IMG/VR virus record: IMGVR_UViG_3300028453_000030
Source of the DNA: a virus
Taxonomy: Duplodnaviria > Heunggongvirae > Uroviricota > Caudoviricetes
DNA length: 4,607 bases
Strand: one strand, 5' to 3'
Position 1 is the stretch's first letter, and every line of letters begins with the position of its first letter. Below are positions 1,570 to 4,480 of this stretch, one piece after another. The notes below the pieces were generated by a model. The model was not told where the DNA came from, ran no database searches, and was given only the letters and a program-made list of their open reading frames with translations. Position numbers and translations under genes: made by a program.

Positions 1570-1851
1570 TCACATCCAGCCACGAAGTTGATGCTCAACA
1601 GCAACCACGTATTCATCGAATATTGACGATATTTGCGAATCATTAATGATGCGCACGTTTACAAAATATCCGTCTTCCTTAACACATACCGGTTCGCCAT
1701 CTTCAGTCAGTTCTCCGGTTTCTTTGTACACATTACCTATCACGTCAATAAGAATATCATCCTGCATCGACTCGTCATCATAATAGCCAATGCTCTCCAT
1801 AAAGGCCGAAAAGTCGGCCCTGTCTGCAAATTTGAGTGTTAAATCTTTCAT
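1570..1851 (-). CDS. small acidic hypothetical protein (93 aa), translationally coupled to the tail fibre gene; possible fibre chaperone or accessory protein
   Basis: The ATG at 1851-1849 overlaps the stf TGA stop (1850-1848) as ATGA, and GGAG lies 8 nt upstream inside the stf 3' end. The protein is D/E-rich (MKDLTLKFADRADFSAFMESIGYYDDESMQDD...). It has no resemblance to lambda Tfa; family not recognised. Confidence 0.55.
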   Translation of the reverse strand: MKDLTLKFADRADFSAFMESIGYYDDESMQDDILIDVIGNVYKETGELTEDGEPVCVKEDGYFVNVRIINDSQISSIFDEYVVAVEHQLRGWM

Positions 1852-4244
1852 TTAATACTCTCCCCCATTTGCGCATCAGTTAATTCTTTATGCCAGAGAC
1901 GAAGATTTCTCAAATGGCCGAATAGATGACGAGTTCCCGATGTGGCTTGACCTCCAATTCGAATAAAGGTCCGTGTTTTTACGCCCGTCCACTCCGTTTT
2001 CATAGTTTTAGTAGCCTCACCGTTAGAAACTACTCGTTTAGTACCATCAGAATAAATATTAAAACCACCAATGAATTTTCGAACATCAGTTCGACCAGCA
2101 AACACACTAGAAACGTAAGTACTTGTCGACGCTTTATAAGTTTGTATATAAAGCTGACCGTAATATTTCTCAGTTGTGTTAAAAGCGTATGTAATTGACT
2201 CAATAGGTGGCACACCAGAAAAATCAAAAATACGCGGTGCTACATTAGGAGGAATATCGCCCCAATTTCTATTGACCTCGACAAGACACGTAAGCGGTCT
2301 ATTATAGATATTATTTTCAGTTGGGATCGTCACCATATCACTGGAGCGGGTTGCGGGTGCAGTTGTCGTAATAACAAAAGATGAAGCACATCCGCCGTTT
2401 TCAAATTGTGGTGTTGCAAGGTAAATATAATCTCCCGCTTCAGTTATACCACCTTTTTTCGGCGCATACTGAATCATTGCGCCAATTAAGGCTTCACCTT
2501 CAACAGCTTCTATAGTTGCCTCATAGAAAATCCACCCTGTAACCGGATCTTTAGTTGCAGTAGCTGCTATTCTATTGGCTGCTCCGCCAGTTTTTTCTAT
2601 TATCAGAGTTCCGAAAGTTAAATAAGCATCTCCTAAAAATGTATAAACCGACCCATCGTATTTTTCAAAACGCAAACGACAACGAAGACCATCAGGAGCT
2701 TTAACCCTGCATGAAACAGTGCAATACTTATTATCGCCACTAACATCAATCCCCCGGGATGCACTGCATGTATGCAGACTAAGTGCAGATGATTGTCCTG
2801 TCATATTATCTTTTGTTCGCATTTTGGCATATAAAAAACCAAATTCATCAACACCATTATTAGTTTTATCGATATTGCTGGTACTCGTCCATTCAGCGGG
2901 AGTATTGGATTTAACAAAATAGTTAGTGCGCTGTCCTTCAATCAATAAACCTTCTTTTTCAAATCGTGGCTCATCAATTTTAGCAACACTAAATACGCCT
3001 GATTTATTGATATATGTGGCAGTTGATGCGCGTTTAAACTTAACAACCTTGTCGCCAGGCATCGTTATTTCATCATCACCAATAACAATTTTTTTATATG
3101 ACGGCGAAAAGCCCGTAATCATATCCAGTGAATCGTTAAACGGTATCCACACATCAGGCAGTGGCTGTAAGACATATTTATACGGCTCTGCTGCCTGACT
3201 TGCATACTCTCTGGCTGCGTCTTCACTTGCTTTAGCTGCTGTCTGGCTTGCTGCCGATGCTTTCGCCGAGTTCGCCGCTGCAGTCTCGCTTGTCTTTGCA
3301 TTGGTTTCACTGGTTTTTGCCGCTTTTTGACTGTTGGCTGATGCAGTGGCAGAAGCAGCCGCCGCGCTTGCAGAACCAGCTGCCGCGCTCTCGCTTTGGG
3401 CTGCTGCAACCTGGCTGTTTTTCGCCGCAGTTTCGCTGGCTTTGGCATTCGTTTCGCTGGTCTTCGCTGCCGTCTGGCTGGACTTTGCGTTAGTTTCACT
3501 CGTCTTCGCAGCTTTCTGGCTGTTAGCCGCAGCAGTTGCTGATCCAGCTGCTGAAGTCGCAGAACCGGCTGCCGCGCTCTCGCTTTGGGCTGCTGCAACC
3601 TGGCTGTTTTTTGCCGCAGTTTCACTGGCTTTGGCATTCGTTTCGCTGGTTTTCGCTGCCGTCTGGCTGGACTTTGCGTTGGTTTCGCTCGTCTTTGCGG
3701 CTGTCTCGCTATTTTTCGCGTTGGTTTCTGATTTTTTGGCTGCTGTCGCGGAGTTTGCCGATGCAGTCTTTGAGGTCGCTGCCGCCTGTGCACTATTAGC
3801 TGCATTCGTTTCTGAGGTTTTCGCCGCGTTCTTTGATGATGCCGCTGCAGTTTCGGATTTCTTTGCCGCCGCTGCGCTCTGAGAGGCGGCTTCGGCGTTG
3901 CGTGCCGCTTCTTCCACCATTACCTCAAAACGACGCAATGCCTCCGGCATGACATCCTCTTCCGTCATGGCACCGAGAAAATCATTCAGCGTGCCTGGTC
4001 TGGAACCTTCATAGACGGTAATGGTCCCGGCATGTGAAGGCGGAAAACCTTCAACCAGCAGGGTGACGCTGTACTGGCCATACTCAACATCCATGCTGTA
4101 ACGCCCGGCTTCATCCGGATTTTCAGAGGCCACCGTATTCACCAGTACCGTGGTGCTGTTACGCTTTGCTTTGAGCTGAATAGTGCAGTTCTGTATTGGT
4201 TTTCCTGCACCGTCTTTCAGCACGCCTGAAATCTGTACTGCCAT
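1848..4244 (-). CDS. stf: side tail fibre protein (Stf-like, 798 aa): lambda-type N-terminal domain, heptad-repeat Ala/Ser/Thr shaft, divergent C-terminal receptor-binding region
   Basis: ORF 1848-4250 on the track. I place the start at the ATG 4244-4242 (MAVQISGVLKDGAGKPIQNCTIQLKAKRNSTTV...), which has GGAG 5 nt upstream; the track's GTG at 4250 would add two residues. The N-terminal ~115 aa closely match lambda Stf (MAVKISGVLKDGTGKPVQNCTIQLKA..., recalled). Residues ~117-346 are AK.SETN-type heptads. The C-terminal ~450 aa (plus 1851-3212) are unlike lambda Stf and end ...FIRIGGQATSGTRHLFGHLRNLRLWHKELTDAQM, reminiscent of a LamG/concanavalin-like jelly-roll C-terminus. Confidence 0.9.
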   Translation of the reverse strand: MAVQISGVLKDGAGKPIQNCTIQLKAKRNSTTVLVNTVASENPDEAGRYSMDVEYGQYSVTLLVEGFPPSHAGTITVYEGSRPGTLNDFLGAMTEEDVMPEALRRFEVMVEEAARNAEAASQSAAAAKKSETAAASSKNAAKTSETNAANSAQAAATSKTASANSATAAKKSETNAKNSETAAKTSETNAKSSQTAAKTSETNAKASETAAKNSQVAAAQSESAAAGSATSAAGSATAAANSQKAAKTSETNAKSSQTAAKTSETNAKASETAAKNSQVAAAQSESAAAGSASAAAASATASANSQKAAKTSETNAKTSETAAANSAKASAASQTAAKASEDAAREYASQAAEPYKYVLQPLPDVWIPFNDSLDMITGFSPSYKKIVIGDDEITMPGDKVVKFKRASTATYINKSGVFSVAKIDEPRFEKEGLLIEGQRTNYFVKSNTPAEWTSTSNIDKTNNGVDEFGFLYAKMRTKDNMTGQSSALSLHTCSASRGIDVSGDNKYCTVSCRVKAPDGLRCRLRFEKYDGSVYTFLGDAYLTFGTLIIEKTGGAANRIAATATKDPVTGWIFYEATIEAVEGEALIGAMIQYAPKKGGITEAGDYIYLATPQFENGGCASSFVITTTAPATRSSDMVTIPTENNIYNRPLTCLVEVNRNWGDIPPNVAPRIFDFSGVPPIESITYAFNTTEKYYGQLYIQTYKASTSTYVSSVFAGRTDVRKFIGGFNIYSDGTKRVVSNGEATKTMKTEWTGVKTRTFIRIGGQATSGTRHLFGHLRNLRLWHKELTDAQMGESIK
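3213..3902 (-). repeat. coding 21-bp (heptad) periodic repeat region forming the fibre shaft
   Basis: The protein reads as consecutive heptads (AKTSETN, AKSSQTA, AKASETA, AKNSQVA, AAQSESA, AAGSATS ...). The DNA shows recurring gctttggc / gtttcgctgg / ctttgcg units. Confidence 0.7.
3370..3704 (-). repeat. in-frame tandem duplication, period 189 bp (63 aa, nine heptads), about 94% identical over ~146 bp per copy
   Basis: Copy 1 at 3370-3515 and copy 2 at 3559-3704 align with an offset of exactly 189 bp and about eight transition differences. The protein segment AKTSETNAKSSQTAAKTSETNAKASETAAKNSQVAAAQSESAAAGSA occurs twice. Confidence 0.85.
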
Positions 4245-4259
4245 ATTCACTCCACAAAT

Positions 4260-4290
4260 AAAAAAGGCGCCATTTCTGGCGCCCGTATTT
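4260..4290 (-). terminator. rho-independent terminator between the J remnant and stf
   Basis: Plus 4266-4283 is GGCGCCA-tttc-TGGCGCC (7-bp GC-rich stem, 4-nt loop). On the minus strand the hairpin is followed by TTTTTT (plus 4260-4265), then ATTTGTGGAGTGAAT-ATG of stf. The plus-strand side has only a weak T tract (cgtattt), so it works mainly for minus-strand transcripts. Confidence 0.6.
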
Positions 4291-4302
4291 GGGTTATAAA
4301 AC

Positions 4303-4480
4303 TCAACTGATACTGATACCGGCTGTTGATTTCTTCATCACGACAACAAGAAGGTCGCTGATACTGGTCGTTGGCGTCCAGTTATTAGCACCATATGAAG
4401 AAACATTGAAAGTCAGGGTGACATGACCGTGTCCGGCAGGCATATCAATGACGGATGAAAATACCCTGCTGACATCCGTC
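4303..4480 (-). pseudogene. J: 3' fragment of the host-specificity / central tail fibre gene J (last ~58 codons), truncated at its 5' side by the IS insertion
   Basis: Minus-strand translation of 4306-4479 is [58 protein letters not shown], with TGA at 4305-4303. Lambda J ends ...VFSRIVDMPAGRGNVILTFTLTSTRHSADIPPYTFASDVQVMVIKKQALGISVV (recalled), giving the same VxDMPAG.G.V.LTF ... SD..V.V.KK...GIS pattern. The frame runs straight into the IS terminal repeat at 4481. The internal ATG at 4443 has no RBS. Confidence 0.7.

Follow-up and report, generated by a model that had tools for sequence, protein, structure and literature searches.

The side tail fibre protein gpStf of phage Ur-lambda has a collar domain homologous to that of the fibre considered here, the two being approximately 85% identical over 94 amino acids (PDB 9e7m/9mgh; Yu et al. 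2025, PMC12617516). The collar domain attaches the fibre at the junction of the tail tube and tip, and residues 102–393 of Ur-lambda gpStf have been modelled as a proximal trimeric coiled coil (PMC12617516). In both proteins a linker leads into a long heptad region rich in alanine, serine and threonine, and in both the gene comes after J, and usually after lom. The lambda shaft sequence is more heterogeneous and lacks the 63-residue tandem duplication described below. In lambda the shaft is succeeded by a hinge, a distal gp37-like region and an OmpC-binding tip, with Tfa as the chaperone, whereas the gene in the 4607-nt stretch of viral DNA analysed here (hereafter, the window) continues into a C-terminus of some 440 residues with a weak concanavalin-like match; after it come a 93-aa ORF and the gene of a second fibre protein, which has an S74 chaperone domain.

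Hollingshead, Fischetti and Scott are said to have found in 1987 that the size of the streptococcal M protein varies by homologous recombination between intragenic tandem repeats. The likeness lies in a surface alpha-helical coiled-coil fibril whose in-frame repeat blocks, set in heptad register, recombine to give length variants. M protein is bacterial, has many repeat blocks, varies frequently and is linked to immune escape, whereas the window fibre has two copies only, contracts rarely and shows no expansion in its best matches. For phage T4, Tetart and co-workers reportedly established in 1996 that duplications in the tail-fibre adhesin gp37 extend host range. These, too, are in-frame tandem duplications in a phage fibre gene, formed by recombination between short repeated motifs; however, they lie in the distal part that binds the receptor, were obtained by laboratory selection and changed specificity, while that in the window is in the proximal shaft, apparently ancient and without known effect on specificity. 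In the motif shuffling and mosaicism of fibre genes, homologous exchange takes place at repeated motifs (Haggard-Ljungquist et al. 1992; Sandmeier 1994; De Paepe et al. 2014, PMC3945230), and the heptad array considered here is likewise the place at which alternative C-terminal modules are attached. Those studies concern exchange between genes and phages, whereas the feature in the window is an intragenic change of copy number. We consider it very probable that nine heptads were duplicated long ago, in tandem and in frame, in the shaft of this lambda-type prophage Stf, and that the copies still recombine, with rare loss of one unit.

The N-terminal region of the gene product (Table 1) matches the prophage tail fibre N-terminal family PF08400 with an E-value of 1.6e-66 (222.9 bits, the cut-off being 26.6), and the PDB chains identified by phmmer comprise residues 1–94 of the Ur-lambda tail fibre protein. 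The match to phrog_1419, a 793-position profile annotated 'tail protein', is full length and spans both repeat copies, and the names attached in RefSeq and phage annotation are 'prophage tail fiber N-terminal domain-containing protein' or 'side tail fiber protein Stf'. The ORF list places the start at a GTG at position 4250, two codons before the ATG at 4244; we prefer the ATG, from which residues are numbered here, because the GTG overlaps a GGAG ribosome-binding site. Just upstream are the last 48 or so codons of a J-like gene (4306–4455). The order J–lom–stf is found in the genomes CB209, MSB1_4I and AVS0655 and in phage PhiR49_1, and J–stf in the allele L086. The window has a single trace of a mobile element, at its edge, where an IS3-family transposase gene is represented by its last 38 codons.

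Table 1. Positions of the fibre gene and its parts in the window
Feature	Position	Strand	Evidence or detail
Side tail fibre (Stf-type) gene, 798 aa	1848–4244	minus	ORF list, PF08400, phrog_1419, RefSeq/phage annotation
N-terminal collar domain, aa 1–94	3963–4244	minus	phmmer against PDB 9e7m/9mgh, E 1e-48
Alpha-helical shaft (predicted), 33 uninterrupted heptads, aa 126–356	3177–3869	minus	heptad layout, periodicity, AlphaFold2
Copy 1, heptad-registered 63-aa unit	3513–3701	minus	aa 182–244, high-identity core 3559–3695
Copy 1 heptads			AAKTSET NAKSSQT AAKTSET NAKASET AAKNSQV AAAQSES AAAGSAT SAAGSAT AAANSQK
Copy 2, heptad-registered 63-aa unit	3324–3512	minus	aa 245–307, high-identity core 3370–3506
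44-nt tract in copy 2 with copy-1-type bases, unit positions 95–129	3379–3422	minus	diagnostic-site pattern
Diverged partial third unit, AAKTSET NAKTSET AAANSAK	3261–3323	minus	Tandem Repeats Finder (2.3 copies), heptad layout, L085 junction
C-terminal region, ~440 aa (442 aa)	1851–3176	minus	presumed receptor-binding part

Phages of the lambda group align over the N-terminal 29% or so of the gene only. Alignment, domain search and inspection of neighbouring genes found neither a lambda-like distal part nor a downstream tfa for the window gene, and the match to Laminin_G_3 at residues 374–436 of the C-terminal segment is weak (E = 0.0015, under the curated cut-off). The same shaft carries several alternative C-terminal modules in different alleles. 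Judged from sequence comparison, the C-terminal region is unrelated to the distal part of lambda Stf, and the N-terminus and shaft evidently make the gene an Stf, one whose putative receptor-binding module is of another kind. A search of the window for recombinase and reverse-transcriptase genes found none. Programmed diversification (invertase, DGR or phase variation) is unsupported in the window, the repeated unit being long and in frame; a phase-variable contingency locus was also rejected, as it needs a unit of 1–9 nt that shifts the reading frame or promoter spacing, and the unit here is of 189 nt and in frame.

Self-comparison of positions 3200–3900 at offsets of 3–399 nt gave, at an offset of 189 nt, a best ungapped segment pairing 3370–3506 with 3559–3695 and scoring 113; all other offsets scored 13 or less. 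In this 137-nt core, identity at an offset of exactly 189 nt is 131/137 (95.6%), and when the comparison is extended to 3370–3515 against 3559–3704 it is 137/146 (93.8%), in agreement with the original prediction of about 94% at exactly 189 bp. Tandem Repeats Finder, together with a separate repeat finder, describes a period of 189 nt over 3276–3710, with 2.3 copies and 85% matches. The copies are thus head-to-tail direct repeats similar enough to pair. The longer 21-bp periodic region in which the repeat had been placed is also real: over the 693 nt that encode the shaft, the mean identity is 48% when the offset is a multiple of 21, 33% for the other multiples of 3 and 25% for the remaining offsets, and reaches 66% at an offset of 189. 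When the 21-nt blocks were shuffled 300 times, the best local score averaged 26 and was at most 57. Set against the observed 113, this means that the repeat far exceeds what heptad periodicity alone would give.

The differences between the copies had been described as transitions throughout. This holds for the six in the core, whereas over the 146-nt span eight of nine are transitions and the other is a T/G transversion at position 3514. All six core differences fall at third codon positions in the minus-strand reading frame. We rejected this silence as proof of the coding strand, because a plus-strand shadow ORF (3334–3882) shares the wobble positions and the differences are silent in both frames; it is homology, to PF08400 and PDB 9e7m, that decides for the minus strand. 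The expectation that the repeat would confound short-read assembly was overstated, as the longest exact run common to both copies is 44 nt and many draft assemblies carry both.

The heptads of the shaft are rich in alanine and serine and follow the consensus x-A-A-x-S-x-x. The copy 2 protein sequence is that of copy 1 over the first 6.5 heptads, after which its tail differs (AAAGSAS AAAASAT ASANSQK). Since the unit is made up of complete heptads, its duplication can lengthen the rod without disturbing the coiled-coil register. Structure prediction for the shaft, proposed at the outset as a check, yields alpha-helical heptads over residues 99–351: the AlphaFold2 monomer model is helical at residues 99–228 and 236–351 (approximately 250 residues, mean pLDDT 76), with a fold-back at Gly-bearing heptads that is probably artefactual. 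From this model and the lambda homologue, the shaft is presumably a trimeric coiled coil, and at approximately 0.148 nm per residue one unit would add some 9 nm to a shaft of some 34 nm. The heptad array itself matched no Pfam family, and beyond the N-terminal domain sequence searches of the PDB gave marginal matches only (E ~1e-3), to an Ala/Ser/Lys-rich stretch in the depolymerase chains 7lzj, 7vyv and 7vz3. A paper on chimeric lambda STF (Nature 2024, PMC11338833) is silent on shaft repeats.

The two-copy form is present in dozens of complete Escherichia coli genomes, at 55 IMG/VR loci and in the isolated phage PhiR49_1, which matches the whole gene in one piece at 98.5%. The gene has the same length in 47 complete genomes covering at least 80% of the window, and the span across the shaft is 901 nt in nearly all complete genomes among the matches listed. 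Comparison of 56 two-copy alleles revealed that copy 1 and copy 2 have different bases at unit positions 6 and 144 in every allele, and at position 21 in 55 of the 56. The mean distance between orthologous copies in this set is 4.0–4.4% and that between paralogous copies 8.8–9.0%, the latter being equal within and between alleles. In the window allele, nine synonymous differences and no non-synonymous ones separate the copies over the initial 48 codons, corresponding to a Ks of approximately 0.34.

These data bear on the suggestion that the duplication is an assembly artefact or the product of very recent, strain-specific slippage. Tandem repeats may be mis-assembled and the two copies are highly similar; nevertheless, a duplicate of either kind should show little or no divergence and be confined to one genome. 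The suggestion, which we consider extremely improbable, is refuted by the occurrence of both copies in complete genomes, in an isolated phage and across the IMG/VR loci, and by copy-specific substitutions fixed across alleles at the Ks given above. We conclude that the duplication is evidently ancient, of single origin and conserved, and neither recent nor strain-specific. Both copies are, on the pattern of substitution, under purifying selection, and two copies are apparently the norm in this allele family.

Shaft length does vary between strains, as the original prediction had supposed. When homologous stf genes were compared for the 63-aa indels it envisaged, proteins of 735–737 residues were found beside the 798–799 residues of two-copy alleles, with a shaft exactly 63 residues shorter (180 rather than 243 residues between fixed markers). 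Three distinct complete genomes, CB209, MSB1_4I and AVS0655, have one-piece matches of 712 or 707 nt. Each carries a different one-copy allele. Some 920 complete genomes carry the shaft, and these three are the one-copy examples among the matches listed (up to 60 per search), which gives a rough figure for their rarity. Allele classes with other tails would confound any count based on matches to the copy-1 and copy-2 tails. Across 29 diagnostic sites, the single unit switches cleanly from copy-1 to copy-2 states, save at known polymorphic sites. The breakpoints, which are known as intervals and among diagnostic sites that are in part polymorphic, are of at least three kinds, at unit positions 22–89, 79–98 or beyond 186. 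The corresponding patterns are 1111-2222... in L081–L083, 111111-2...2 in L086 and L087, and copy-1 states throughout followed by post-copy-2 sequence in L085; L085 and L087 are on short draft contigs and may be assembly collapses. The class that keeps the whole of copy 1 has L085 as its one representative, and at the L085 junction the partial third unit provides the downstream homology for such a deletion. The flanks of the one-copy alleles match those of two-copy alleles at 97.4–100% identity, and the two-copy alleles so matched represent four different C-terminal types.

It might be supposed that a single copy was the original state, that a few lineages have kept it and that no deletion has taken place. 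Most one-copy units do have a copy-2-type tail, and their amino acid sequence is compatible with a simple ancestor. However, in an ancestral unit the states of the two copies would be expected to be mixed at random, where we see one clean switch whose place varies by allele, and flanks matching present two-copy alleles at up to 100%, on four module types, are unexpected for relicts older than a duplication with a Ks of approximately 0.3. We judge this origin very unlikely. The clean 1-to-2 switch argues that the one-copy alleles are derived, and the evidence points to deletions that have recurred, through homologous recombination or through slippage. That the repeats would be substrates for recombination is borne out to this extent: the single units are copy-1/copy-2 chimeras, as unequal recombination or slippage predicts.

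In the reading we prefer, an old duplication of nine heptads (63 residues, 189 nt) would have lengthened the coiled-coil shaft, leaving copies similar enough to recombine. Short conversion-like tracts would homogenise parts of them and, rarely, exactly one unit would be lost when the two copies undergo homologous recombination, single-strand annealing or slippage during replication, to leave a fibre 63 residues shorter. The deletions may be the work of RecA, of Red/RecT-type annealing or of slippage; stf genes are documented substrates of homologous recombination driven by phage recombinases (PMC3945230). The window allele itself contains a 44-nt tract, which is also the longest exact run common to its two copies, that looks like a gene-conversion tract. 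Its diagnostic-site pattern in copy 2, 2222222-11111-222..., is shared with L005 and L008, and the copy-1 state is found in copy 2 at positions 99, 104, 126 and 129 in only 5–6 of the 56 alleles and at position 95 in 24 of them. In other alleles, the heads of the units (the first 140 nt) are typically some 88–93% identical between copies; the higher identity in the window would be due to the partial homogenisation brought about by this tract.

A synthetic three-copy DNA query recovered no three-copy allele, the best 40 complete E. coli records being all two-copy, and a synthetic three-copy protein compared with 5.8 billion proteins gave none longer than 802 residues among the best 120 matches. 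The lack of three-copy alleles fits deletion-only mechanisms or selection, and is at odds with simple reciprocal unequal crossing-over of which the products are neutral. Across the family, shaft indels are nearly all whole multiples of the heptad (−63, −28, −7 and −105 residues), and all length variants seen keep the reading frame. The 817-nt span of EFF60 (H99), considered as an intermediate copy number, proved to be an 84-nt (four-heptad) deletion inside copy 1; the locus is annotated as fragmented in RefSeq and was left out of the unit-wise evidence.

Shaft length, 24 or 33 heptads, could itself be a selected polymorphism, the reach of the fibre being tuned to the thickness of the capsule or O-antigen and the repeat acting as a length switch. 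The preponderance of heptad multiples, the independent occurrence of one-copy alleles on four C-terminal backgrounds, the lack of a three-copy allele in the best matches, which could reflect an upper limit on length, and the role of the side fibres in making first contact with the cell in Ur-lambda (PMC12617516) are all in keeping with such tuning. However, heptad multiples are expected in any case, because the DNA repeats that recombine follow the heptad register and selection would act against products that break it. The one-copy alleles are rare singletons, and their protein clusters have one member each against hundreds to thousands for two-copy clusters, a pattern resembling sporadic deletions that do not spread. 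Moreover, no particular C-terminal module or downstream gene goes with either copy number. Overall, we think a selected polymorphism clearly unlikely. Copy number may have some effect on adsorption. A related and rather unlikely idea is that the two-copy shaft is kept at a preferred length and that the rare one-copy forms are functional short fibres, with adsorption altered according to capsule or O-antigen thickness. If this were true, the repeat would be a natural one-way length switch of a phage receptor-binding fibre, the lack of three-copy alleles following from a deletion-only annealing mechanism or from an upper length limit.

That repeats can alter the length of coiled-coil surface fibres, and that phage fibre genes recombine internally, is already well known; the occasional removal of a copy by recombination is ordinary behaviour for a phage fibre gene, and the repeat opens no new question. 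In practical terms, the repeat can be trusted in assemblies, and differences of 63 residues in the length of stf products are real biology and not error. For the design of chimeric lambda-type side fibres of varied length, the nine-heptad block is a natural unit that keeps the register. For the fibre family, the shaft offers a small, clean case of coiled-coil fibre evolution, in which an old duplication would have been followed by purifying selection, occasional conversion and rare, recurrent deletion.

Self-comparison of positions 3200–3900 of the window at all offsets from 3 to 399 nt revealed a sole outlier at 189 nt, with a score of 113, every other offset scoring 13 or less. Over the span originally predicted, 3370–3515 against 3559–3704, the two copies are identical at 137 of 146 positions (93.8%), in keeping with the ~94% foreseen. 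The further statement that all differences between the copies are transitions holds for the six in the 137-nt core; over the longer span transitions account for eight of nine, the exception being a T/G transversion at 3514. Tandem Repeats Finder reports a 189-nt period over 3276–3710 (2.3 copies, 85% matches), and a second repeat search of the window gives the same period. As predicted, the repeat is embedded in a longer region of 21-bp periodicity: in 3177–3869 mean self-identity is 48% at 21-nt multiples, against 33% at the remaining multiples of three and 25% for all other offsets. When the 21-nt blocks were permuted 300 times and the best local score recorded, this averaged 26 and reached at most 57, far below the observed 113, so the 189-nt repeat is not a product of the heptad periodicity.

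The repeat lies in stf, whose start is the ATG at 4244, giving a protein of 798 residues; GGAG precedes this ATG, and an upstream GTG overlaps the GGAG ribosome-binding site. The product opens with MAVQISGVL, as does lambda Stf. Residues 1–131 match the Pfam family PF08400 'Prophage tail fibre N-terminal' (E = 1.6e-66), residues 1–94 are homologous to Ur-lambda gpStf and match its solved tail fibre chains 9e7m/9mgh (E = 1e-48), and the whole protein gives an end-to-end match to PHROG 1419 'tail protein'. The N-terminus, the shaft and the position of the gene make the product a side tail fibre of the lambda type, but its distal part is not lambda Stf: alignment to lambda is confined to the initial ~29% of the gene, and lambda tfa has no counterpart 3′ of stf. 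It is homology that assigns stf to the minus strand. Silent differences between the copies were rejected as evidence of the coding strand, because a 182-residue plus-strand ORF at 3334–3882, spanning the Ala-codon-rich shaft, shares wobble positions with the stf frame and the differences are silent in both; this antisense shadow ORF shows no sign of being a gene.

In gpStf of Ur-lambda, a collar domain (1–91) and a flexible linker are followed by a proximal trimeric coiled coil (102–393), a hinge and a distal part (PMC12617516). Residues 126–356 of the window protein form 33 unbroken heptads of the type x-A-A-x-S-x-x, many of which, alternate ones through much of the array, carry Asn at the first position. 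In an AlphaFold2 monomer model of residues 95–398, a helix runs from residue 99 to 351 with a mean pLDDT of 76. The original assignment of the repeat to a fibre shaft is correct, as PF08400, the Ur-lambda chain matches, the heptad array and the helical model attest; of the coiled-coil and beta-helix structures proposed, the monomer model, being alpha-helical, speaks against the latter. The helix is broken once, by a fold-back of the chain at Gly-bearing heptads; in the model (ma16b943d1813), the break is exactly at AAAGSAT SAAGSAT in the tail of copy 1 (residues 229–235, in the region of 3540–3560). Monomer models of trimeric rods tend to fold back, and the break is probably such an artefact; it could also mark a flexible point of the rod. 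The copies encode the same protein sequence for six and a half heptads from their start and differ in their tails, which read AAAGSAT SAAGSAT AAANSQK in copy 1 and AAAGSAS AAAASAT ASANSQK in copy 2. Shaft residues 180–220 give marginal matches (E about 1e-3) to the Ala/Ser/Lys/Glu-rich N-terminal stretch of phage depolymerases of solved structure (PDB 7lzj_A, 7vyv_A and 7vz3_A), a hint that this heptad type may also form the stalk of other phage fibres or spikes.

Coordinates of the repeat and of neighbouring features in the window
Feature	Position	Strand	Remarks
Hydrophobic 102-aa ORF	184-492	minus	phrog_1443 (unknown function); no Pfam match
Second fibre protein, 346 aa	after 93-aa ORF, within 520-1851	minus	phrog_4563; C-terminal Peptidase_S74 intramolecular chaperone domain
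93-aa ORF	downstream of stf; start codon 1849-1851	minus	phrog_1361 (unknown function)
Repeat-bearing ORF	1848-4250	minus	extent in ORF listing
Copy 2	3324-3512	minus	aa 245-307; nine heptads exactly
Copy 1	3513-3701	minus	aa 182-244; nine heptads exactly
Best ungapped pair at offset 189	3370-3506 vs 3559-3695		131/137 identical (95.6%)
Copy-1-type tract in copy 2	3379-3422		longest exact run common to both copies, 44 nt
Terminator-like hairpin	4265-4284	minus	8-bp stem then T run; between J stop and stf start
J-like tail-tip gene, last ~48 codons	4306 to about 4455	minus	adjoins transposase remnant at about 4455
IS3-family transposase, last 38 aa	4491-4607	minus	weak rve_3/rve_2 matches

The duplication is neither an artefact nor a recent event. 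At least 80% of the window is present, at the same length, in 47 complete E. coli genomes; the isolated phage PhiR49_1 carries the whole stf gene at 98.5% in a single piece; and nearly all complete genomes among the matches listed for a synthetic one-copy query (712 nt) span 901 nt. Two units 63 residues apart occur in 55 of the 80 IMG/VR loci fetched with N-terminus and shaft. Across these 55 loci and the window (56 alleles), the copies differ at unit positions (nucleotides within one unit) 6 and 144 in every allele and at 21 in 55. Over the unit's initial 140 nt, mean distances are 4.0–4.4% for the same copy in different alleles, and 8.8% and 9.0% for the two copies in the same and in different alleles, respectively, the signature of a single old duplication that the whole family inherited, with little concerted evolution. 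Codons 1–48 of the unit in the window allele hold nine synonymous and no non-synonymous differences (Ks about 0.34), so purifying selection acts on both copies. The in-frame tandem duplication of nine heptads originally proposed is confirmed in both copies, with the correction that it is old and conserved across the allele family. The concern that it would confound short-read assembly was overstated: the copies share no exact stretch longer than 44 nt, so assembly is not seriously at risk.

Shaft length does vary between strains, as had been anticipated, through rare contractions only. Of the 120 best-matching protein clusters of the same architecture, most are of 798–799 residues and about twenty of 735–737 residues or fragments thereof; fixed markers flanking the shaft are spaced 243 or 180 residues apart, a difference of exactly 63 that matches the indel sought in homologous stf genes. 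One-copy alleles occur in at least three different complete genomes (CB209, MSB1_4I and AVS0655), each of which matches in a single piece, of 712 or 707 nt. Were these relics of an ancestral single copy, interleaved copy-1 and copy-2 states would be expected. In nucleotide sequence, the one unit present is cleanly chimeric, opening with copy-1 states and continuing in copy-2 states, and we rejected that origin since one switch and no interleaved mixture is seen. The switch falls at unit positions 22–89 in loci L081–L083 and 79–98 in L086 and L087; in L085, the one locus to keep the whole of copy 1 and, like L087, a short draft contig that may be an assembly collapse, it falls beyond position 186, joining copy 1 to sequence that normally follows copy 2. 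These differing breakpoints bear out the view of the repeat as a substrate for recombination. The flanks of one-copy alleles are 99.3–100% (upstream) and 97.4–99.9% (downstream) identical to those of present-day two-copy alleles representing four different C-terminal module types; the one-copy alleles are thus recurrent, fairly recent deletions.

Among the matches listed (40–60 records per query, drawn from about 920 complete genomes with the shaft), only the three genomes named are one-copy, each with a different allele, and the one-copy protein clusters are all singletons, against up to thousands of members in two-copy clusters. No three-copy allele was found with a synthetic three-copy DNA query, the best 40 records all being two-copy, or with a synthetic three-copy protein searched against 5.8 billion proteins, the best 120 all having 802 residues or fewer. 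Copy number varies rarely and in one direction only, that of contraction.

Identity between the two units over their first 140 nt ranges from 88 to 95% among the alleles, with the window at the top (94.3%). Its copies are unusually alike because copy 2, here and in loci L005 and L008, is of the copy-1 type at unit positions 95–129 and of the copy-2 type on either side. Of the 56 alleles, only five or six have a copy-1-type base in copy 2 at positions 99, 104, 126 and 129, and 24 have one at position 95. The simplest reading of this pattern is a short gene conversion or a double crossover between the copies.

Other shaft variants differ mostly by whole heptads. In a 785-residue class (IMG/VR loci L041–L055) copy 2 consists of eight heptads only, the shaft of a 686-residue class has 18 heptads and lacks the duplicated block, and L084, from E. 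coli EFF60 (NZ_CP086678.1), shows a deletion of 84 nt (four heptads) between two short repeats, AAKNSQ and AAANSQ, within copy 1; the L084 stf locus contains IS elements and is fragmented in the RefSeq annotation. Indels that are not whole heptads occur in only two sequences, the proteins P0117 (−5 residues; 794) and P0001 (+3; 802); these would break the coiled-coil register, or may be sequencing errors.

Upstream of stf, the tail-tip gene appears to have been cut by an IS, so that the window prophage is probably defective. No lom lies between J and stf (4245–4310), as in L086; lom is present there in the CB209, MSB1_4I and PhiR49_1 loci. Downstream, ATGA (1848–1851) overlaps the start codon of the 93-residue ORF with the last sense codon and stop of stf, and in related loci a 234-residue version replaces the 346-residue second fibre protein. 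Whereas lambda has an Stf/Tfa pair, the 93-residue ORF and S74-chaperone fibre protein that follow stf here suggest a two-protein, possibly branched, side fibre.

Exactly one unit has been lost, repeatedly, at different homologous breakpoints, and the copies exchange short tracts. The deletions would arise by homologous pairing of copy 1 with copy 2; their occurrence without triplications fits intramolecular recombination, replication slippage or single-strand annealing by phage Red/RecT-type proteins, and is compatible with selection against longer fibres. In this the repeat resembles that of streptococcal M protein, a classical case of repeat-mediated size variation in a coiled-coil surface fibril, and duplications in the fibre gene product T4 gp37. 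Red/RecT-type proteins drive exchange in stf genes (PMC3945230), and the window repeat fits the role that repeated motifs have long been recognised to play in fibre-gene recombination (references cited in PMC3945230). We found no description of the 63-residue stf polymorphism; events of this kind are familiar. The nine-heptad unit would lengthen the putative trimeric coiled coil, a rod of ~34 nm, by ~9 nm with its register unchanged, taking ~0.148 nm for each of its 63 residues. Similarity to the window ends at about 3357, in the copy 2 tail, in several phages (PhiR47_1, PhiR11_1 and PhiR55_1), and a different C-terminus begins just past copy 2 in the 785-residue class; the heptad array seems to double as a junction for the exchange of receptor-binding modules.
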